From Candidatus Methanomethylicia archaeon (GTDB taxonomy: Archaea > Thermoproteota > Methanomethylicia > Culexarchaeales > Culexarchaeaceae), in the NCBI GenBank assembly GCA_038727515.1, contig JAVYVS010000002.1, forward strand, positions 160,001 to 224,000: a DNA stretch of 64,000 nucleotides. Reading direction: 5' to 3'. This document shows, in pieces, positions 8,710 to 44,845 of the stretch (position 1 is the first letter of the stretch; each line of letters opens with the position of its first letter). Made by a program: the position numbers and the translations under genes. The notes beneath the pieces are model-generated. The model saw nothing but the letters and a program-made list of their open reading frames with translations, was not told the origin of the DNA and made no database searches.

Positions 8710-11523
8710 CTATGCTTTTTCACTCCTCCACTTTATTACTATACTTCTAACTAACTTAGCTACTTCATATGCATGCTTCTCTACATCCTCCCCATAGGGT
8801 ATAACTTCAAGTTTAATCTTTGGTTCTTCTTCCATGTATATTTGTATCTTATTTATTGATCCTGATGAACCAATTGTTCCTTGACCAATTCTATAACTAA
8901 ATCTAATAGTTCTATCATCAATTCTCCTCATTCTCTCTACTCCCATAGTGTTATTTAATGATTCCATTAAGTACGTTAATAGTTCTCCTATTTCTTCTAT
9001 TCCAAATCTTATTGGTATTATGAATTCCCATGGTTTATCTAAATCTTGAGGCTTTTTATCAGCTTTCCACCTCATCAATTTTGATGGTGTAACTATTATA
9101 GATGATCTTAAAGCTGGTATTGATCCTGATGCTGCAGTTATAGCTGATATTATTAGTGTGGATATAGCCCAGCTGTATGATACCTTTGGATATACTTCTA
9201 TTGTTAGATTTAGATTGTATGCAATTTTATAGAATGTTAATCCAATTATATATCCTATTCCTCCAGCAATCAACCCTATTATTATTGCTTCAAAGGCAAA
9301 TATTGCTGTTATATGACTTGGATTTAATCCTATGGCTGAAAGTATTGTTACTTCATTCTTCCTTTCATGTACAGATGCCAACATTACAATCCCTATGTTT
9401 GATATGCATATTGCCAATGTAAGCATAGCTTCCAGACCTTTTATATCCATGTAGCTTTGATAGTTTAAGAGGTAGATTTTATTTTGTGTAATTGTTTTAA
9501 CCATGTAGATTCCAGATAATGCTATTCGTTTTGATAGTGAGAAAGCATCTTCTTCATTGATAATTCTTATGTATAGTCTTGCTGGTAGTAGTGAGAATAT
9601 TCTTGAATCTTCTGGTGATACTATAACTGTTTCTATTGGTTCACAATCCATTAATTCTATTCTTACCTCTTCACCTCCCATTACCATTATCAATTTTCCA
9701 GGGGTTAAACTTCTATCATCGTAATCTACTATTGATATAAAATCATCGCTTAATATCCCAGTTACCTCCATTCTCTTTCCACTATTTAACAGTATTATTT
9801 TGTCTCCTATGTTAATATTCAGCTTCTTTGCAGCTTCATTTGTTACTGCTATTTCCCCACTTTTATTTGGTAATCTACCTTTAATCTTCATATTTATCCT
9901 TTGTATTATTGGGTCTGAGGGATTGGTGAAGGCAATAGCTCCATATATGTTTAGTTTATCTTGTACATATGGGTTTATAGCTATTTCTAATGGTGCAAAT
10001 TTTGCTTGACTTTCAAGTTTAAATGAATATTCCCTAGATTTTTCTTCTATTGAGTATGCATCTATTATTGTGGTACTTATTGCTGTGAATTTACTATATC
10101 TCTCTTCTCCAACGCTTCTATATACTATTATTCCTTCAGGTTCATTAACTCTGTTAAATACATTTATCCTTAAACCTTCTTCCACTGAAGCAGATGTTAA
10201 TGCTACAAATCCACCTATTATTATTGTTATTGACATTATTGTTAATATGCTTCTAAGCTTCCTCCTCTTTAAATTCCTCTTTGATATTGATGATATTGAT
10301 GTTATTAAGCTTCTAAGTGAAGCTTCCCCTTTCTCCCCCATATGATTTATGGTTATTGTTAGGATCGTGATTATTATGTATGATGTTGCTGCATATATGT
10401 ACATGAGATTTTGATCTATAGCATTTATTCCTGGATATAATGTCTTGAATACATACACTAGAATTATGAAGGATACTGCTGATGCAATTAAACTGTATCT
10501 TTCTCTATCGAATATTGTTAATCCAATTATTGTTGATGTTAATGTGAGTAGTATGATTATTATTGTTGTTGAACTTGTTGCTTCAGAATATAATTGTGTA
10601 ACTTTATTGTTTATTTCATTTAGAGCTAGTATTGCTTCTCTAATGTTTGAGTAGCATTCATCATACCTCTTTATCCTTAATGCTACTTCTCCATTTTCTA
10701 TTAAATTGATTATATTTGGTATTTTTGATTTATATATTGCTAGATAGAATCCATCTTTCTCTGCTTTCTCAATATTACTTATGGTTTTATTGTATTCTTG
10801 TTTAGCATCAAGTATACTATCCTTTAATGTTATTTCCTGTATTTCAAATATTACAATTTCTCCCTCTAAAAGTTTAATTGGGTTTTTTGTTAAGTTATAA
10901 TACTTCGTGTATACATATCTACCTGCTGTATATAAGACTTCTACTTCCACGGTTACTTCAAAGTTTGCTGGTACAATTATCTTATCGCTTTCTATATCTA
11001 GTGCTATATTCTTCTCCCTTTCTCCAAAGCTTTGTAGGATCTTTGTACCATTTACTTCTAATTTTTGTGTTGAATATATGGTGTATCCCATGATTTTACC
11101 TTTTGATTCACTTCTCGCATCTAAACTCTCTCCTATCACTTTTACTTCTGCTGCTTTTATTAATGTAATTGTAATGTTTAAGTCTCCCTCTACATTTACA
11201 TTAACATAACCTATTGTATAATCTATTGTTGGGGTTTCAATTAGATCTGCTCTTGCATATATTATGTATGTTCCTTGTGGTAGCTTTAGTGTTTTTAATC
11301 CATATTCCAATTTTGTTTTTGTATAGAAGCTGATGGTGTATGGTGTTACATATCTATATATGTATATATTGGAGTTTTCTATTGGTTTTCCATAGGCATC
11401 CACTACCTTTATTGTTACATTGTAGTTTGTTTCAGCATATGTTTTCTGAATTGTTGATGCACATATTATTGATGATATGAGTATTGCAATCAGCATCACT
11501 TTTATTTCTATATTTTTGTCCAT
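8710..11523 (-). CDS. Large secreted-domain FtsX/MacB-like ABC permease
   Basis: Signal peptide, beta-rich extracellular domain, RNLKRRKLRSILT, SVHERKNEVTILSAIGL FtsX motif. Confidence 0.8.
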   Translation of the reverse strand: MDKNIEIKVMLIAILISSIICASTIQKTYAETNYNVTIKVVDAYGKPIENSNIYIYRYVTPYTISFYTKTKLEYGLKTLKLPQGTYIIYARADLIETPTIDYTIGYVNVNVEGDLNITITLIKAAEVKVIGESLDARSESKGKIMGYTIYSTQKLEVNGTKILQSFGEREKNIALDIESDKIIVPANFEVTVEVEVLYTAGRYVYTKYYNLTKNPIKLLEGEIVIFEIQEITLKDSILDAKQEYNKTISNIEKAEKDGFYLAIYKSKIPNIINLIENGEVALRIKRYDECYSNIREAILALNEINNKVTQLYSEATSSTTIIIILLTLTSTIIGLTIFDRERYSLIASAVSFIILVYVFKTLYPGINAIDQNLMYIYAATSYIIITILTITINHMGEKGEASLRSLITSISSISKRNLKRRKLRSILTIMSITIIIGGFVALTSASVEEGLRINVFNRVNEPEGIIVYRSVGEERYSKFTAISTTIIDAYSIEEKSREYSFKLESQAKFAPLEIAINPYVQDKLNIYGAIAFTNPSDPIIQRINMKIKGRLPNKSGEIAVTNEAAKKLNINIGDKIILLNSGKRMEVTGILSDDFISIVDYDDRSLTPGKLIMVMGGEEVRIELMDCEPIETVIVSPEDSRIFSLLPARLYIRIINEEDAFSLSKRIALSGIYMVKTITQNKIYLLNYQSYMDIKGLEAMLTLAICISNIGIVMLASVHERKNEVTILSAIGLNPSHITAIFAFEAIIIGLIAGGIGYIIGLTFYKIAYNLNLTIEVYPKVSYSWAISTLIISAITAASGSIPALRSSIIVTPSKLMRWKADKKPQDLDKPWEFIIPIRFGIEEIGELLTYLMESLNNTMGVERMRRIDDRTIRFSYRIGQGTIGSSGSINKIQIYMEEEPKIKLEVIPYGEDVEKHAYEVAKLVRSIVIKWRSEKA

Positions 11524-11549
11524 TTCTTCAACCTCAAAGGGATGTTTCC

Positions 11550-12626
11550 CTATATTTTTGTTAATAGATTTTTATAGTTTTCTCCACTTATCCTTATTAT
11601 TGTTTCAGCAAGTGCTTTTGCTGTGTTTTCTATATCGGTTATTGAAATTATTTCTGCAGTACTATGCATATATCTTAGTGGTATGGATAGTAGAGCTGTG
11701 GCTACTCCACCTCTTGAAACTTGTATTGCAAATGCATCTGTTCCACTAGGTCCAAATATTGTTTCTATTTGATATGGTATTCCATGTTCTTTACATACTT
11801 CTATTATCAATTCTGATAATTTTGGATGGAAGTTTGGCCCTATTCCTATAGCTGGTCCTCCACCAAGTTTTATTCCTGAAACCCTTTTTTCTGGTACGTT
11901 ATATGATGATGCATGCGTTACATCTATTGTAAAGGCTACATCTGGATTTATCCTATAAGCTGCTGTTGTTGCTCCTCTAAGTCCAAGTTCTTCTTGTGTA
12001 GTGGCTACAGCATATATCTTCTTTTTAACACCTTTATCCATTAATATTTCCATTGCTTTTATCATTGCCACTATTCCTGCTTTATCATCTAATCCTACTC
12101 CAGCAACGTTTCTCCCCTTTCCAATGGGGGTTACTTCAAGTTTTGGTGTAATTACCGTTCCAATGTTTATTCCAAGTTCTAATACTTCACTCTTGCTTTC
12201 TACACCTATATCTATTGCCATATCCTCTATATCTACAACTTTTTCACGTTCTTCAGTTTTCACTAAGTGTATTGGTTTTGCACCTATTACACCAATTATT
12301 GGGCCTTTGCTTCCATGTAATACAACTTTTATTCCATATAGTAATCTTTTATCAAATCCTCTTTGTGTAAAGTATATATACCCTTTTTCATCTATGTGAT
12401 TTACCATTAATCCTATTTGATCCATGTGTGCTGTTATCATTATTTTAGGATCTTCCCCTTCCATGTATCCAATTACATTTCCCATAACATCTACATCCAC
12501 TTTTAAACCCATTTCCCTGAATATTTCCATGATTTTTCTTCCAGTATTTTCTTCATACCCAGATACACTTGGTGTTTTAACTATTTCCTCCAATAATCTT
12601 AACACATCTATCTTCAATCTTCCCAC
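11550..12626 (-). CDS. M42 family aminopeptidase (TET-like)
   Basis: AHMDQIG, LDDKAG, QEELGLRGA, GTDA, IPLRYMHS. Confidence 0.92.
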   Translation of the reverse strand: MGRLKIDVLRLLEEIVKTPSVSGYEENTGRKIMEIFREMGLKVDVDVMGNVIGYMEGEDPKIMITAHMDQIGLMVNHIDEKGYIYFTQRGFDKRLLYGIKVVLHGSKGPIIGVIGAKPIHLVKTEEREKVVDIEDMAIDIGVESKSEVLELGINIGTVITPKLEVTPIGKGRNVAGVGLDDKAGIVAMIKAMEILMDKGVKKKIYAVATTQEELGLRGATTAAYRINPDVAFTIDVTHASSYNVPEKRVSGIKLGGGPAIGIGPNFHPKLSELIIEVCKEHGIPYQIETIFGPSGTDAFAIQVSRGGVATALLSIPLRYMHSTAEIISITDIENTAKALAETIIRISGENYKNLLTKI

Positions 12627-38085: not shown

Positions 38086-38448
38086 TTATTTTCTAGTTAT
38101 TCTTGGCTCTATTTCGAGTATTATCTTTTTCAAACCTTTGATGGTTACTTTACCTCCTTCTTCAATAACTTCTTCTCTTTCTGGAATTATTATTTTACCT
38201 TTGTACATGCCGCTTGGATTGTTTAAATAGAAAACTTGTAGTGTTAGTATAGCTATATTTAATTTTTTAGTTCCATATTCCATTAATAATTCTTTTATTT
38301 CTCCTAGGGATATTCCAGTTCTCTTTTGTAGAGATTTCATGATTTCATCTGGATTTTCATCCATAACTTCAAGTATATCACTTATATTTAGATCATGTTC
38401 CTTTAAGAAATCTTTTAATGCATCTCTCAACCTTATATACATCTTCAA
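38086..38448 (-). CDS. Hypothetical protein
   Basis: 120-aa ORF downstream of folD on the same strand. Confidence 0.6.
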   Translation of the reverse strand: MKMYIRLRDALKDFLKEHDLNISDILEVMDENPDEIMKSLQKRTGISLGEIKELLMEYGTKKLNIAILTLQVFYLNNPSGMYKGKIIIPEREEVIEEGGKVTIKGLKKIILEIEPRITRK

Positions 38449-38475: not shown

Positions 38476-39339
38476 TTATTCTTTGTTTATTTTACTTTGG
38501 ATCTTGACTGCTTTTACTAGGTTTTTCATTAGTATTGCTATTATCATTGGTCCAACTCCCCCCGGCACTGGTGCTATTGCTGATGCTTTTGCTGATACTT
38601 CATCCATTTTTACATCCCCCACTAATTTATCCCCTATGTAATTGAATCCACAATCTACAACCACTACCCCTTCTTTAACCATTTCTCCAGTTATTGCTTG
38701 AGGTTTTGCTATATCCACTATTAATATGTCTGCATCTTTTGTGTATTTTGTTAAGTTTGGTGAATTGTATTCGCAAAGTGTTACATCTGCGCCTTCATTC
38801 AATAGTAATGCTGCTAATGGTTTTCCAGTTAGATCCGTTACTCCCACTATTACTGCATGTTTACCATTAACTTTTACTCCATACTCCTTAAATAATTCCA
38901 TGATTCCCTCAGCTGCAGGCGATACTAAGCATTCCTCTTTTAAATATAGTTTTCCAATGTTTATTGGATGTATTCCATCTATATCTTTTTCAGGTTTTAT
39001 TGTTCTTAAAATCTTCTTTTCATCTATATGTTTTGGTAGTGGTAGTTGAACTACTATTCCATGAACATTTACATCTTCATTTAATTTCTCTATTACTTTT
39101 AATAATTCTTCTTCACTTACATCCTCTGGTAGGTTTATTATTTCTGATTCCATTCCAAGCCTCTTTGCTCTTCTAGCTTTCATATTAACATATGATGTGG
39201 AAGCTGGGTCTTTTCCAACTAATACTAGAGTTATTTTTGGTGTTAACCCCTTTTCCACGAGTTTTTTAACTTCTAATTTTAGTTCTTCAAATATTTTATT
39301 TGATAATGTATTTCCATCTAGTATTATTGGATTTTCCAT
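38476..39339 (-). CDS. folD: FolD-family protein (cyclohydrolase motifs intact, NADP-binding motifs degenerate)
   Basis: YVNMK, VQLPLP, KDIDG, GDV, PVPGGVGP; GVTDLTGKP in place of GRSxxVGxP. Confidence 0.88.
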   Translation of the reverse strand: MENPIILDGNTLSNKIFEELKLEVKKLVEKGLTPKITLVLVGKDPASTSYVNMKARRAKRLGMESEIINLPEDVSEEELLKVIEKLNEDVNVHGIVVQLPLPKHIDEKKILRTIKPEKDIDGIHPINIGKLYLKEECLVSPAAEGIMELFKEYGVKVNGKHAVIVGVTDLTGKPLAALLLNEGADVTLCEYNSPNLTKYTKDADILIVDIAKPQAITGEMVKEGVVVVDCGFNYIGDKLVGDVKMDEVSAKASAIAPVPGGVGPMIIAILMKNLVKAVKIQSKINKE

Positions 39340-41001
39340 TTATCTTACCCCTATTATTTCTCCTGTTTCTGGGTCTAAATCTATATTTTCTGCTGCTGGT
39401 TCTGTGGGTAATGCTGGTAGTGTGCTTATTTCCCCACAATATGCTACTAAGAATCCTGCTCCTGCAAATACTTTTACATCTGTTACTGTTATTTTGAATC
39501 CTCTTGGTCTTCCAATTAATTTTGGATTATCTGTTAGTGACAATGGTGTTTTCGCCATATTTACTGGTAGATTTGCATATCCCCATCTAGTTATTCTTCT
39601 AATACTTGTTTTTGCTTCATCTGTGAATATTACATCATCTGCTCCATACATCTCTCTAGCTATTATCCTTATCTTCTCTTCTATTGGTATGTTTAAGTCA
39701 TATAGTGGTTTAAATTCAGATTTTCTATTTTTAATGGTTTCTAAAATGGTATTTGCCAGTTCTATTCCTCCTTCTCCACCCTTTGCATACACTTCTGATA
39801 ATGCTACTGGTACATCCCTCTGTCTACACCAATCCATTACATACTTTATTTCTTCCTCTGAATCACCTTCAAATTTATTTATTGCCACTACTGCTGGCAC
39901 TCCAAATTTCAATACGTTTTCTACATGTTTTTCAAGGTTTTCTATACCCTTTTTCACTGCTTCTAGATTTGGATTTGTATGATCTTTTGCTCCTCCATGC
40001 TCTCTTAAAGCTCTTATACTAACAACTATTACTCCAACATCTGGTTTTAATCCTCCTATACGACATGGTATATCACAGAATTTCTCAAATCCAAGGTCTG
40101 ATCCAAATCCTGCTTCAACTATTACGTAATCTGCAATTTTAAGTGCCATTTTTATTGATATTAGACTTGGTGATCCATGGGCTACATTTGCAAATGGAAT
40201 TCCATGTACGAATGCAGGTGTCCCCTCCATTGTTTGAACTAAGTTTGGTTTTAAAGAATCTCTCATTATTGCAGCCATGCATCCAGCACATTTAATGTCG
40301 TTTGCTTTAACGAGTTTCCCATCCTTACTTAAAGCTACAAGTATATTTCCGAGTCTCTCCTTTAAATCTCTATAGTTACATGCTAATGCATGTATAGCTG
40401 CTGTTTCACATGCTGTTGTTATTTCAAATCCTGTTTCCCTCGGTATTCCCCCCTCTTTTCCACCTAAACCTATAACTATATTTCTTAAGGGTCTATCCTC
40501 CATGTCTTGTACTCTCTTTATGAATATGTTATGTATATCTATTTGTGGTTCCTTCCCCCTGTATATGTGGTTATCTAACATGGCATTCATTAAGTGGTGA
40601 GCCATGGTTATTGCATGTGTATCTCCTGTGAAATGTAGATTTATTTCTTCCATGGGTAATATTTGTGATCTTCCTCCACCAGTGGCTCCACCCTTTATTC
40701 CAAAGGTTACTCCCATGGAGGGTTGTCTAACAACAACTATATTTTTTAAATTCATTTTCCACATGGCTTGCCCTAATCCTATTGCAGTTGTTGTTTTCCC
40801 CTCTCCAGCTTTTGTTGGAGTTATTGCTGTTATCACGATTAGTTTTCCATCTGGTTTATCCTTATTTCTCTCATAAACATGTAATTTCACTTTTGCCTTA
40901 TAATCTCCATACAATTCTATATCTTCACGTTTCAAACCTATTTTTTCAGCTACTTCTGTTATGGGTTTTAAATTGATTTTCTGACTCATCTCTATCACCA
41001 C
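39340..41001 (-). CDS. fhs: Formate--tetrahydrofolate ligase
   Basis: TPTKAGEGKTT, GIKGGATGGG, NLHFTGD, PFANVAHG, EAGFGSDLG, AGAGF. Confidence 0.95.
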   Translation of the reverse strand: MVIEMSQKINLKPITEVAEKIGLKREDIELYGDYKAKVKLHVYERNKDKPDGKLIVITAITPTKAGEGKTTTAIGLGQAMWKMNLKNIVVVRQPSMGVTFGIKGGATGGGRSQILPMEEINLHFTGDTHAITMAHHLMNAMLDNHIYRGKEPQIDIHNIFIKRVQDMEDRPLRNIVIGLGGKEGGIPRETGFEITTACETAAIHALACNYRDLKERLGNILVALSKDGKLVKANDIKCAGCMAAIMRDSLKPNLVQTMEGTPAFVHGIPFANVAHGSPSLISIKMALKIADYVIVEAGFGSDLGFEKFCDIPCRIGGLKPDVGVIVVSIRALREHGGAKDHTNPNLEAVKKGIENLEKHVENVLKFGVPAVVAINKFEGDSEEEIKYVMDWCRQRDVPVALSEVYAKGGEGGIELANTILETIKNRKSEFKPLYDLNIPIEEKIRIIAREMYGADDVIFTDEAKTSIRRITRWGYANLPVNMAKTPLSLTDNPKLIGRPRGFKITVTDVKVFAGAGFLVAYCGEISTLPALPTEPAAENIDLDPETGEIIGVR

Positions 41002-41077
41002 TACTAATGTTCTTACTACCTTATTGTTGTGATTACATATATAAAGTTAAGGCAGTAGATATTTTGTGGTGTTTTAT

Positions 41078-41932
41078 ATGGGTGTTGATAAGGTTAGAAT
41101 TGCAATTGTTAAGTATGGTTGTATAGGGAGTTCACCATTGCTAGAGATTATGCTTGATGAAAGGGCTAATAGAGAGGATATAATTGTAAGAGTGTTTTCC
41201 ACTGCTGGTAAAATGGAGGTTGAAGATTGTTTATCTATAAGTGATTATGTAGTGTCTTTTAATCCACATTTAATAGTAAATGTAACTCCAAATGCTTCTT
41301 TGGAAGGTCCCACTAAAGGTAGGATGGATTTAAAGGAGAAACTTCCTAAGACACCTATAATTGTAATTTCCGATGATCCTGCACGTAAAGTTATTAAGGA
41401 TATGGAGGATGCAGGTTTTGGATATATTATTGTTAGAGCTGATCCTATGATTGGTGCTAGAAGAGATTTTCTAGATTCCACTGAAATGGCTTTATTTAAT
41501 GGATATCTACTTGTGATTTTATCTGCTACTGGTGTTGTTAGAATGCTTGTATCTGAAATCGATAAAGTTATTGAAGCTATTAAATCTGGTGTTGAAGTTA
41601 AACTTCCAAGGATTGTGGGTGATGCTCTTTTCGTTGTTGAGAATTATGGTGGATTTAAGAATCCTTATGCTAAAGCTAAAGCTATAGCTAGTTATGAAGC
41701 TGCAGCTAGAGTTGCAGCTCTATCTACTGCTGGATGTTATACCTTGAAGGAGAGGGAACAATATATTCCAATGGTTGCAGCTGCCCATGAACTTTTGAGG
41801 TATGCTGCTTTACTTGCTGATGAAGCTAGAGAGATAGAGAAGTATGGTGATAGTGTTTATCGTACTCCACATTTATCGAGTGGTGAAGTTAGATTTAAAT
41901 TTAAGTTGATGGAAGAAGCTAAAAAAGGTTAA
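41078..41932 (+). CDS. mtd: F420-dependent methylene-H4MPT dehydrogenase
   Basis: LDERANREDI, DPMIGARRDFLDSTEMALFN, NPYAKAKA, AAAHEL, ADEAREIEK, RTPH. Confidence 0.92.
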   Translation: MGVDKVRIAIVKYGCIGSSPLLEIMLDERANREDIIVRVFSTAGKMEVEDCLSISDYVVSFNPHLIVNVTPNASLEGPTKGRMDLKEKLPKTPIIVISDDPARKVIKDMEDAGFGYIIVRADPMIGARRDFLDSTEMALFNGYLLVILSATGVVRMLVSEIDKVIEAIKSGVEVKLPRIVGDALFVVENYGGFKNPYAKAKAIASYEAAARVAALSTAGCYTLKEREQYIPMVAAAHELLRYAALLADEAREIEKYGDSVYRTPHLSSGEVRFKFKLMEEAKKG

Positions 41933-42006: not shown

Positions 42007-43713
42007 GTGGGTAAATGGGTTGTATGTGCAGCTTGGCCTTATGTTAATGCTTTCCCTCATCTTGGAACTATGGTTGCATGTATAATTTCACCAGATGTAT
42101 TTGCAAGATATCTTAGGGCTAAGGGTGAAGAAATTGTGTTTGTTAGTGGATCTGATGAACATGGAACCCCCATTGAAGTTGAAGCTAGGAAGATGAATAT
42201 TCCACCTAAAAAGCTTACTGATGAACTTCACAATTATGTATTAAAGTTATATGAAAAATTGGGTGTTAGCTATGATAATTATACTAGAACTGAGAATCCT
42301 ATACATATAGATTTTGTTCAGAAGTTTTTCATGAAATTATATGAAAATGGATACATATACGAGAAGGAGGTTTCACTACCATTTTGCCCTAATTGCAATA
42401 TCTTCTTACCAGATAGATTTATTGAAGGTACATGTCCATATTGTGGTGAAACTAGAGCTAGAGGAGATCAATGTCCATCATGCAATAGGATTTTAGACCC
42501 AGTGGATCTACTGGAACCACACTGTGTCTTTTGTGGTTCTAAACCTGAAGTTAAAGTGACTAAACATTGGTTTTTTGATCTCCCTAAACTCTCAGATAAA
42601 CTTATGAATTTCGTTAATAATCATAAATTGTTTTCTGAGAGTATTAAGAATTATTGTAAGATGTGGTTTAAGGAGGGGTTGAAGGCTAGATCTATAACTA
42701 GGGATAACTCTTGGGGTATACCAGCACCCTTCCCAGGAGCTTCTGGAAAGACTATATATGTGTGGTTTGAAGCTTTATTGGGTTATCTCTCAGCAACTAA
42801 AGAGTATTTTATTAAGAAGGGATTTGAAGATTTATGGCTTGAATACTGGCTTAATAAAGATTCAAAGACTGTATACTTCATTGGTAAAGATAATATACCA
42901 TTTCATGCGATAATACTGCCAGCAATGCTCATGGCTTCTGGAGAAGGATATGTTCTTCCTTGGCAGATATCTTCAGTTGAATTTCTAATGTTTGAAGGTC
43001 AAGCTTTTAGTAAGAGTAGGGGTATAGGTGTTTGGATTGATGAAGCTTTAGAAATTGCCCCAGCAGATTATTGGAGGTTTGCATTAATACTAATGAGACC
43101 TGAAACTAGAGATTTAAATTTCACATGGGAATCTTTCCATCGTATCGTTAATGCTGAAATCAATGATAACCTTGGAAACTTTGTTCATAGAACTTTAAGC
43201 TTCATATACTCTAGATTTGATGCTAAGATTCCTAAACCATATGAACTTGATGATAGGGATAGATCAATGTTATATAAACTTAAGTTTGCACCTAAAAATA
43301 TTGGTGCTTTAATTGAAGATCTTAAGTTAAAGGCTGCTGCTGAATCTCTACTTGAATTCTCCTCCTCCGGTAATCAATATTTAAATGATAAAGCCCCTTG
43401 GAGAACTATTAAAGAAGATTTTGAAGTTGCATCTACAACTATGTGGGTTGCAGCTAATGTCGTTAAATCCTTAGCTATATTGATGGCACCCTTCATGCCA
43501 TTTTCCGCTGATAAAGTTTGGTATTATCTCAATTTAGGGGGCTCAGTTCACGAAGTTTGTTGGGATGATGCTTCAAAAGCAGATTTACAATATGGACATA
43601 GGATCAATAAGCCTGAGCCTTTATTTACAAAGTTTCCTGATGATTTTGTTAAAACTATAAATGATAGGTTGAAGGATGTGAGAATGCGTTTGAAAAGACC
43701 GGAGTTAGCTTGA
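42007..43713 (+). CDS. metG: Methionine--tRNA ligase
   Basis: AWPYVN..PHLG, GSDEHGTP, Zn knuckles, YVWFEA, GKDNIPFH, FSKS. Confidence 0.96.
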   Translation: MGKWVVCAAWPYVNAFPHLGTMVACIISPDVFARYLRAKGEEIVFVSGSDEHGTPIEVEARKMNIPPKKLTDELHNYVLKLYEKLGVSYDNYTRTENPIHIDFVQKFFMKLYENGYIYEKEVSLPFCPNCNIFLPDRFIEGTCPYCGETRARGDQCPSCNRILDPVDLLEPHCVFCGSKPEVKVTKHWFFDLPKLSDKLMNFVNNHKLFSESIKNYCKMWFKEGLKARSITRDNSWGIPAPFPGASGKTIYVWFEALLGYLSATKEYFIKKGFEDLWLEYWLNKDSKTVYFIGKDNIPFHAIILPAMLMASGEGYVLPWQISSVEFLMFEGQAFSKSRGIGVWIDEALEIAPADYWRFALILMRPETRDLNFTWESFHRIVNAEINDNLGNFVHRTLSFIYSRFDAKIPKPYELDDRDRSMLYKLKFAPKNIGALIEDLKLKAAAESLLEFSSSGNQYLNDKAPWRTIKEDFEVASTTMWVAANVVKSLAILMAPFMPFSADKVWYYLNLGGSVHEVCWDDASKADLQYGHRINKPEPLFTKFPDDFVKTINDRLKDVRMRLKRPELA

Positions 43714-43727
43714 TTTGAGGTGGGAAT

Positions 43728-44845
43728 TTGGAGTTACATGGTTTATTGAGGGATAAATCTTTGGCTCTTAGAGTTGCTAAGTACATTGATGAACGATGTT
43801 TTAAGAGTAGATATTTAATTATGCATGTTTGCGGCACACAGCCTTTTAAGGCTGGCCGATACATGAATATACAATAACGCATTTTGGAATACGCAACTTA
43901 ATACCAAAGATCGATTTAAGAGCTGGACCTGGATGTCCTGTTTGTGTCGCTTCACCAGTAAATATTGATTTAGCAGTTAATCTATCTCTACATGAAAATG
44001 TTATTGTCACAACTTTTGGCGATATGTTTAGAGTTAGAGGCTCTAAATATTCTCTGATGGATGCTAAGAGTATGGGTGGTAGAGTTACCATTGTTTATAG
44101 TATAAATGATGCTATTGAAATTGCTAGGAAAAATCCTAATTTTGAAATTGTTCATTTCGCTATTGGTTTTGAGACTACAGCTCCCTCCACAGCCGCTATT
44201 CTTTTATCTAATCCTCCAAGAAATTTCTCTATAATACCTACACATTTATTGATACCTCCAGTTATGTCTTATCTACTCAATCTTGGTGAAATTGGTATTG
44301 ATGGTTTTATATGTCCAGGTCATGTTTCAACTATTATTGGTGTTAAACCATATTTAGAGATTTCAATTTCCAATAAGGTTCCAATGGTTATAGCTGGATT
44401 TGAACCTTTAGATGTTCTATTTGGAGTCGCAATGCTTATCGATATGATTAATAATGGTGAATTTACTGTTAAGAATGAGTATAGTCGTGCAGTTAAATTT
44501 GAAGGTAATGTTAAAGCTATTCAATTGATGAATGAAGTATTTAGGGTTTCTGATGCTTATTGGCGTGGTATTGGTTTAGTTCCCAATTCTGGTTTAGTTC
44601 TTAGAGAAGAATTTTCAGATTTTGATGCTGTGAAGAAGTTTGATATTGAAGTTGAAGAAGATTATAGTATGCCTAAAGGTTGTAGGTGTGGTGATGTACT
44701 TAGGGGTTTAATTATGCCTCATGAATGCCCCTTATTCTCAAAATCATGTACTCCAGATAATCCTATAGGTCCATGTATGGTTTCTTCTGAAGGTGCATGC
44801 TCTATATTGTATAAGTATGGTGGATACATGTATTTAAAACGTTAA
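43728..44845 (+). CDS. hypD: Hydrogenase maturation protein HypD, split by a 23-nt putative intron (exon 1 43728-43837, exon 2 43861-44845; 364 aa spliced)
   Basis: GAGGTG RBS plus TTG; spliced MHVCGTHE...GPGCPVCV...GFETT...PGHVS...GFEP...CRCGDVLRG...CPLF...GPCMVSSEGAC. Confidence 0.92.
43838..43860 (+). other. Putative archaeal BHB-type mRNA intron in hypD
   Basis: CGGC-ACA-CAGCCT-ttta-AGGCTG-GCCG-ATA: 4-bp helix flanked by two 3-nt bulges; cutting after the second bulge nucleotide restores GGC ACA CAT GAA (G-T-H-E) in frame. Confidence 0.87.

Follow-up and report, generated by a model that had tools for sequence, protein, structure and literature searches.

Within a window of 64,000 nucleotides from a Candidatus Methanomethylicia archaeon (order Culexarchaeales, family Culexarchaeaceae; contig JAVYVS010000002.1, positions 160,001 to 224,000), three genes of one-carbon (C1) metabolism lie side by side: fhs, for a formate-tetrahydrofolate ligase; a folD whose product is an unusual member of the bifunctional dehydrogenase/cyclohydrolase family (here the variant FolD); and an mtd for a second paralog of the F420-dependent dehydrogenase of the methanopterin pathway (here the linked Mtd). 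The association of the three genes, which recurs in various uncultured archaea of sediments and hot springs, is real, conserved and larger than this single locus. It probably reflects a division of labour in which the variant FolD would act as cyclohydrolase only and the linked Mtd as its dehydrogenase, whatever the carrier; that this takes place on folate has, in our view, about an even chance. As a rule, the methyl branches based on folate and on methanopterin are regarded as distinct toolkits without homology; the module joins enzymes of both, so that one of them must accept the carrier of the other pathway, which would be a new enzyme specificity. We consider it probable that an old and widespread archaeal module, composed of a FolD-derived cyclohydrolase and a dedicated Mtd clade, crosses the folate/methanopterin divide, and hence that either an F420-dependent methylene-tetrahydrofolate dehydrogenase or a ligase joining formate to tetrahydromethanopterin (H4MPT) exists.

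The window genome is 93.6% complete in 12 contigs, encodes a single FolD and a single Fhs, and has Ca. Culexarchaeum nevadense, of the same family, as its closest named relative. As reported in a preliminary description of this DNA, folD and fhs abut with zero gap on one strand and mtd is divergent (Table 1). Its figure of under 80 bp for the spacer between fhs and mtd holds for the longest starts (64 bp) but not for the first ATG codons (88 bp). A TA-rich core is the best conserved part of this spacer among the eight Culexarchaeales compared and is a candidate TATA box shared by both strands. The three proteins matched the FolD, FTHFS and MTD families only in Pfam and NCBIfam, with no Fch-family cyclohydrolase or NADP-dependent MtdA among the matches, and Fhs is a full-length FTHFS with the core motifs (PRK13505, 756.9 bits against a cut-off of 652).

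Table 1. Features of the fhs-folD-mtd locus, in window positions (aa, amino acids; ORF, open reading frame).
Feature	Position	Strand	Size	Description
folD (variant)	38476..39339	-	287 aa	FolD-fold protein, Pfam PF00763 and PF02882; catalytic domain intact, NAD(P) pocket substituted; proposed product a monofunctional methenyl-tetrahydropterin cyclohydrolase
fhs	39340..41001	-	553 aa from GTG	formate-tetrahydrofolate ligase family; probable ATG at 40989
mtd (linked)	41066..41932	+		diverged second paralog of F420-dependent Mtd; ATG probably at 41078; would be the dehydrogenase of the fhs-folD module
AT-rich element	41038..41045	both		TATATAAA on +, TTTATATA on -; candidate TATA box serving both directions of the divergent promoter
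ORF of no known family	38086..38448	-	120 aa	directly downstream of the variant folD in all Culexarchaeales examined

The variant FolD has a normal fold: its predicted model (predicted local distance difference test, pLDDT, 92.7) superposes on solved FolDs with template-modelling (TM) scores of 0.93-0.94 and comprises the catalytic and Rossmann domains, the Rossmann fold being intact. It reaches the cut-off of none of the 25 NCBIfam FolD models shown, which is weak evidence since these models are lineage-specific. Seven substrate/catalytic and thirteen NADP-site residues have been listed for the human enzyme (PMC3368264), and the human numbering was carried onto the variant FolD by motif. The seven substrate/cyclohydrolase residues are all kept (Y52, K56, Q100, L101, D125, G273 and G276), in agreement with the preliminary description, and Leu101 changes to Met in some relatives. 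The four motif changes described there are likewise present (PCTP to SPAA, GRSxxVG to GVTDLTG, CHS to CEY and AxG to DIA), and two further ones are added here, DVGIN to DCGFN (I238F) and GPMT to GPMI (T279I), the equivalent of Thr279 being a named cofactor contact (PMC6443876). The pocket substitutions are thus T148A, R173V, S174T, H196E, S197Y, A215D, G217A, I238F and T279I, with I176 also substituted, and only C236 and G237 of the thirteen listed NADP-site residues match the human enzyme; T216, Q218 and M221 also vary among normal FolDs.

Since Arg173 is replaced by Ala in solved FolDs of Francisella, Helicobacter and Campylobacter, and CHS to CEY is limited to the window's own family (other Culexarchaeales retain His), those two positions prove little, and the argument for a putatively lost pocket rests on the nicotinamide and pyrophosphate positions. 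In 16 Culexarchaeales FolDs, T148A, A215D, I238F and T279I each occur in 16/16 and Gly217 is lost from all, as against 98 other FolDs in which Gly217 (98/98), Thr279 (97/98) and Ala215 (94/98) are kept. A frameshift or assembly artefact as the source of these changes was ruled out, given the intact reading frame and the recurrence of the residues in 16 relatives.

Profile searches revealed the same pattern well beyond Culexarchaeales, in 101 sequences with Asp or Glu at position 215 (36 at 80% non-redundancy). In this subfamily Thr279 is kept in none and Thr148 in 3%; positions 173, 196, 197 and 217 are highly variable (3.15 bits of entropy at position 196), the replacements of Gly217 reach Tyr and Phe, and even Gly178 varies. 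Retention is 0.29 in the conserved columns of the NAD(P) site versus 0.84 in the remaining conserved columns, a contrast slightly inflated because A215, itself among the ten site columns, was used to define the group; catalytic S49, Y52, K56, Q100 and D125 are retained at 0.97-1.00. Variable pocket columns together with invariant catalytic columns argue for a lost cofactor site and not for a switch from NADP to NAD, and the invariance of the catalytic columns also rules out pseudogene-like decay. The sequences form one clade with 99% support, or 97% after removal of the trait columns, and the neighbouring Fhs proteins likewise group in a single clade (95%; FastTree, 20 outside sequences), with shifted residues. 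For annotation, Asp or Glu at 215 without Thr148 and Thr279 provides a three-residue signature; at present these proteins are labelled in databases as bifunctional NADP enzymes. A scan of metagenome loci yielded essentially ordinary FolDs. Separately, one FolD group (P0212, P0305-P0310) has lost Thr148, Gly217 and Thr279 and kept Ala215, possibly an independent loss of the cofactor site, and a few otherwise ordinary FolDs (L016/L191 of genome G022 and L189 of G384) carry a 16-aa insertion after the GRS-like motif.

The strongest indirect argument for the variant FolD as the cyclohydrolase half of a pair comes from two bacterial contigs (L204:5020-6855 and L205:2569-4404), where it follows a second FolD in tandem. 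The second FolD has Lys56 replaced by Gln and an intact NAD(P) pocket, and its neighbour keeps the Lys and has the pocket blocked. In E. coli FolD the K54N exchange abolished cyclohydrolase activity and left about 19% of the dehydrogenase activity (PMC5688156), and the cluster of the Lys56-to-Gln paralog includes a Methylomusa protein adjoining metF. The tandem therefore has the appearance of a bifunctional enzyme split into two FolD paralogs, the variant FolD being paired with a probable dehydrogenase-only FolD in a bacterium and with Mtd in archaea.

The linked Mtd belongs to PF01993 (PRK00994, 334.5 against a cut-off of 297) and is 55% identical to the other Mtd of the genome. Members of its clade are 68-100% identical, followed by a gap down to 56%. 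It keeps 77/89 conserved columns and thus looks catalytically intact; the clade-specific changes are small (E134D and F225Y in Culexarchaeales) and the branches long. Two mtd copies occur in 6/12 genomes of Culexarchaeales, a state that no other family in the class shows; this rules out, for Culexarchaeales, a chance adjacency of fhs-folD to the only mtd of a genome. Mtds linked to fhs and the variant folD fall on one side of a branch with moderate support of 92/94 (67/86 under a mixture model), and in an approximately unbiased (AU) test a clade of the Culexarchaeales and Bathyarchaeia linked Mtds alone was neither rejected nor shown (p 0.19).

A complete mch/ftr/fwd set elsewhere in the genome had been named in the preliminary description as telling against its reading. 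Such a set is indeed present, as an ftr-mtd-fwdDB-fwdA-fwdC-mch-mer cluster on the same contig, about 130 kb from the trio and adjoining acetyl-CoA synthase/carbon monoxide dehydrogenase (ACS/CODH) genes. Because that cluster carries its own mtd, and the linked mtd lies outside it, the set does not overturn the proposed division of labour. The cluster Mtd of the window's family (L128, L125) groups with the Ignisphaera/Sulfolobales type, apart from that of family f3 (L109, L110, L126), hinting at a replacement of the H4MPT-cluster Mtd within Culexarchaeales. Some Bathyarchaeia genomes (G412, G497, G543, G549, G623 and G359) have three Mtd matches each, which are fragments or paralogs.

Conservation of the synteny and of the FolD substitutions, named in the preliminary description as a check, is borne out well beyond the window. 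The order mtd-fhs-folD is conserved in eight Culexarchaeales genomes across three families, and the trio is also found in three Bathyarchaeia families and on metagenome contigs, in divergent, co-directional and convergent layouts. It is divergent in Bathyarchaeia family f57 (4/4, each genome with a second mtd) and in most loci examined of family f66, co-directional in family f73 (L326, L328) and convergent at L201/L202; in a Nitrososphaerota lineage mtd lies 4 kb from the variant folD. Such variety of layout speaks against a gene order that was simply inherited. Among 301 Bathyarchaeia genomes, mtd is present in 67/70 with the variant FolD versus 11/52 with an ordinary FolD, counts that rest on few independent lineages and on motifs verified in roughly half of the former and roughly a dozen of the latter genomes, the remainder being assigned by family and score. 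The three genomes with the variant FolD and no mtd are 68-88% complete, and the ordinary Bathyarchaeia FolD lies among purine genes in most loci checked. At five loci (L333-L335, L377, L378; genus g170) a 540-aa M20-type amidohydrolase, by weak M20/amidohydrolase matches, is inserted between mtd and fhs.

The proposal of the preliminary description, a FolD reduced to cyclohydrolase with Mtd as its redox partner, is strengthened by the conserved synteny in three layouts, the dedicated paralog, the co-occurrence and the bacterial mirror-image pair. From the observed sequence pattern, synteny, paralogy and co-occurrence we infer activities, carrier, cofactor and direction as follows. The genes fhs, folD and mtd would form one three-enzyme module interconverting formate and methylene-pterin, separate from the Fwd/Ftr/Mch/Mtd/Mer branch of the genome. 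Fhs would link formate and ATP to the N10-formyl carrier; the variant FolD would interconvert the N10-formyl and methenyl forms only, its NAD(P) pocket being blocked by acidic and bulky residues; and the linked Mtd would perform the methenyl/methylene hydride transfer with F420 instead of NAD(P). The carrier is most likely scavenged folate, which would make the linked Mtd a methylene-tetrahydrofolate dehydrogenase that depends on F420 and may accept H4MPT as well. The module may exchange C1 units with glycine cleavage and with the pools for serine, thymidylate and purines. With F420, standard-state energetics would favour formate reduction, and oxidation to formate plus ATP would need product removal.

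This direction differs from the formate plus ATP that the preliminary description expected through reverse Fhs. The methenyl/methylene couple lies at about -300 mV on tetrahydrofolate (H4F) and about -390 mV on H4MPT, and F420 at -340 to -360 mV; oxidation of methylene-H4F with F420 costs about 8-12 kJ/mol, before about 8 kJ/mol of reverse Fhs. By these potentials formation of formate plus ATP is uphill and would proceed only with product removal, formate reduction being the easier direction. With regard to formate sources, no Fdh paralog of FwdB was found in the window genome. The published account of Culexarchaeia invokes pyruvate formate-lyase (PflD; 10.1101/2022.04.06.487207), which was ruled out as the glycyl radical enzyme found (L351:1648-4095) scores above the cut-off for trans-4-hydroxy-L-proline dehydratase. 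A histidine/formimino source of methenyl-folate was also ruled out, FTCD_N being absent in the five genomes searched. The window genome encodes PurN and a PurP-like protein, which need formyl units and formate. Given this demand, and with neither an Fdh paralog nor a pyruvate formate-lyase, it is also plausible that glycine supplies a low flux in the oxidative direction. A PurN with an extra C-terminal domain of about 130 aa (L361:12320-13339; also in G003 and G004) is encoded two genes from an energy-coupling factor (ECF) S-component (11325-11852).

The choice of carrier is less firm than the division of labour. Folate is favoured by GcvT, PurN and ThyX in the window genome and by a Bathyarchaeia genome (G487) in which the trio clusters with gcvPA, gcvPB, gcvT, glyA, a weak ECF S-component match and a CofE-like glutamate ligase; no MetF or serine hydroxymethyltransferase (SHMT) match was found in the window genome. 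Several observations weigh against the proposal as a whole or against folate. In the Culexarchaeales searched there was no folP/Pterin_bind (dihydropteroate synthase, DHPS), FolC or MptA/FolE2, and CofD was found in 0/12 genomes, so folate and F420 would both have to be scavenged. The linked Mtd differs only subtly from other Mtds; its monophyly is weak, and the set includes one sequence added after the tree had been seen. A FolD tree from the N-domain alone does not resolve the variant clade, some variant folD loci have no adjoining mtd (L207, L331, L332, P0176), and the lineages behind the co-occurrence are few. Three module-bearing Bathyarchaeia (G522, G436 and G487) encode ribofuranosylaminobenzene 5'-phosphate (RFAP) synthase and a TIGR00284 DHPS-like protein, that is, methanopterin-type synthesis, with no strong FolP match, and in many f66 genomes, including the single-contig G522, the linked Mtd is the only Mtd, alongside Mch.

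The last two points suit the same division of labour on a methanopterin-type carrier, where the linked Mtd would be a conventional F420/H4MPT enzyme and Fhs and the variant FolD would have switched carrier. Formate would enter the H4MPT pool in an ATP-driven manner via N10-formyl-H4MPT, bypassing Fwd, Ftr and methanofuran, and the NAD(P) activity of FolD would have been lost because NAD(P) is energetically ill suited to the reduction of methenyl-H4MPT. The 77 conserved Mtd columns and the distinct Fhs clade with its shifted residues are also in keeping with this, and a change of carrier has precedent in GlyA and has been proposed for MetF of ANME-1 archaea (PMC9012536). However, a second, conventional Mtd persists in Culexarchaeales and in two Bathyarchaeia families, its gene close to mch wherever this was checked, and such a copy would be redundant on a single carrier and is explicable only by two pools or two directions; a Bacillota-type sequence belongs to the variant FolD clade and is paired with a folate-pathway FolD; and RFAP synthase and other methanopterin synthesis genes were also not found in the Culexarchaeales searched. 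We regard the methanopterin version as the less likely of the two. It is more doubtful still that the variant FolD works without a partner dehydrogenase, serving only the exchange between formate and formyl/methenyl-folate for purines or 5-formyl-folate salvage, next to a co-regulated, H4MPT-only Mtd. PurN, the PurP-like protein, a motif resembling 5-formyl-tetrahydrofolate cyclo-ligase (motif only) and the loci lacking an adjoining mtd are compatible with such a role, but it leaves unexplained a dedicated Mtd paralog kept through three rearrangements, the co-occurrence and the gcv-glyA cluster; no formiminotransferase was found as another methenyl source, and methylene units from GcvT would be cut off from Fhs. 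A FolD that is still bifunctional, with a changed preference (NAD+ or another hydride carrier) and an mtd adjoining for co-regulation of separate branches, appears very improbable. The Glu that the window's family has at position 196 is reminiscent of an NAD+ signature, Arg173 is dispensed with in the solved FolDs mentioned above, the modelled Rossmann fold is intact, and Asp/Glu215 and Asn/Phe238 are conserved as if functional; yet the residues at position 196 differ widely within the subfamily, nearly every member lacks Thr148 and Thr279, Gly217 and Gly178 vary as described, and the bacterial member adjoins a dehydrogenase-type paralog.

The proposed cyclohydrolase-plus-dehydrogenase module can be compared with several known systems. 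It shares folds, the fhs-folD order and the seven substrate/catalytic residues with the folate branch of Fhs and bifunctional FolD, but here the NAD(P) pocket is rebuilt clade-wide, the window genome has no MetF match and an Mtd-family gene is the constant neighbour. Acetogens with a monofunctional FolD and FchA carry the two FolD activities on two proteins; there FolD keeps the dehydrogenase, whereas the variant FolD is proposed to keep the cyclohydrolase, and L204/L205 would have both halves as FolD paralogs. In function the proposed module is similar to FtfL-Fch-MtdA of Methylorubrum extorquens AM1, which provides the C1 steps of the reductive glycine pathway in its engineered form (PMC8879981) and in which three separate enzymes lead from formate to methylene-H4F with a stand-alone cyclohydrolase and dehydrogenase, and MtdA accepts both H4F and H4MPT (PMC9012536). 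The window cyclohydrolase differs in being FolD-derived and not Fch, and the dehydrogenase in belonging to the F420-dependent Mtd family and not to NADP-dependent MtdA. The Mtd of the archaeal H4MPT branch (Methanopyrus kandleri, PDB 1QV9/3IQE) is of the same family by profile and sequence, with most conserved columns kept; the linked Mtd is unlike it in being a second paralog outside the ftr-fwd-mch cluster, tied to fhs and the variant folD and on long branches.

The same genes figure in two published reconstructions. That of Culexarchaeia, the same order, reports parts of the H4F and H4MPT branches and does not name FolD or Mtd in its main text (10.1101/2022.04.06.487207); that of Bathyarchaeia, whose families probably overlap the orders discussed there (not matched by name), describes in its main text a reductive glycine pathway through the H4F branch with an NADP-FolD (PMC10321748). 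The main texts of both make no mention of a degenerate pocket or a second mtd. A search of main texts, mostly from outside the subscription journals, found no description of the variant FolD clade or the linked Mtd clade, and neither an F420-dependent methylene-tetrahydrofolate dehydrogenase nor a formate-H4MPT ligase activity. As the Culexarchaeia H4F branch and the reductive glycine pathway of sediment Bathyarchaeia both count on NADP-FolD activity, under the proposed division of labour the published carbon-fixation maps would need another enzyme and electron carrier at the methylene/methenyl step, and the formate/glycine pathway of abundant sediment Bathyarchaeia would run on F420 and not on NADPH. 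Additionally, an F420-driven or cyclohydrolase-only part could serve engineered formate assimilation.

With respect to cofactor supply, the window genome encodes Mer and two CofE above cut-off, and Culexarchaeales (G000 and others) keep two CofE, a third CofE-like ligase and an MptN-like ligase. Together with the missing synthesis genes this suggests order-wide scavenging of folate, methanopterin-type and F420 cofactors in Culexarchaeales, which is relevant to their cultivation. The 120-aa ORF downstream of folD matched neither Pfam nor NCBIfam, and it was not seen adjoining the Bathyarchaeia variant folD genes; its functional tie to the module is uncertain. Elsewhere in the window, the hypD ORF at 43713-44845 encodes 273 aa, without the N-terminal part of the Pfam model, compared with about 365 aa in relatives, possibly through a frameshift or assembly error.

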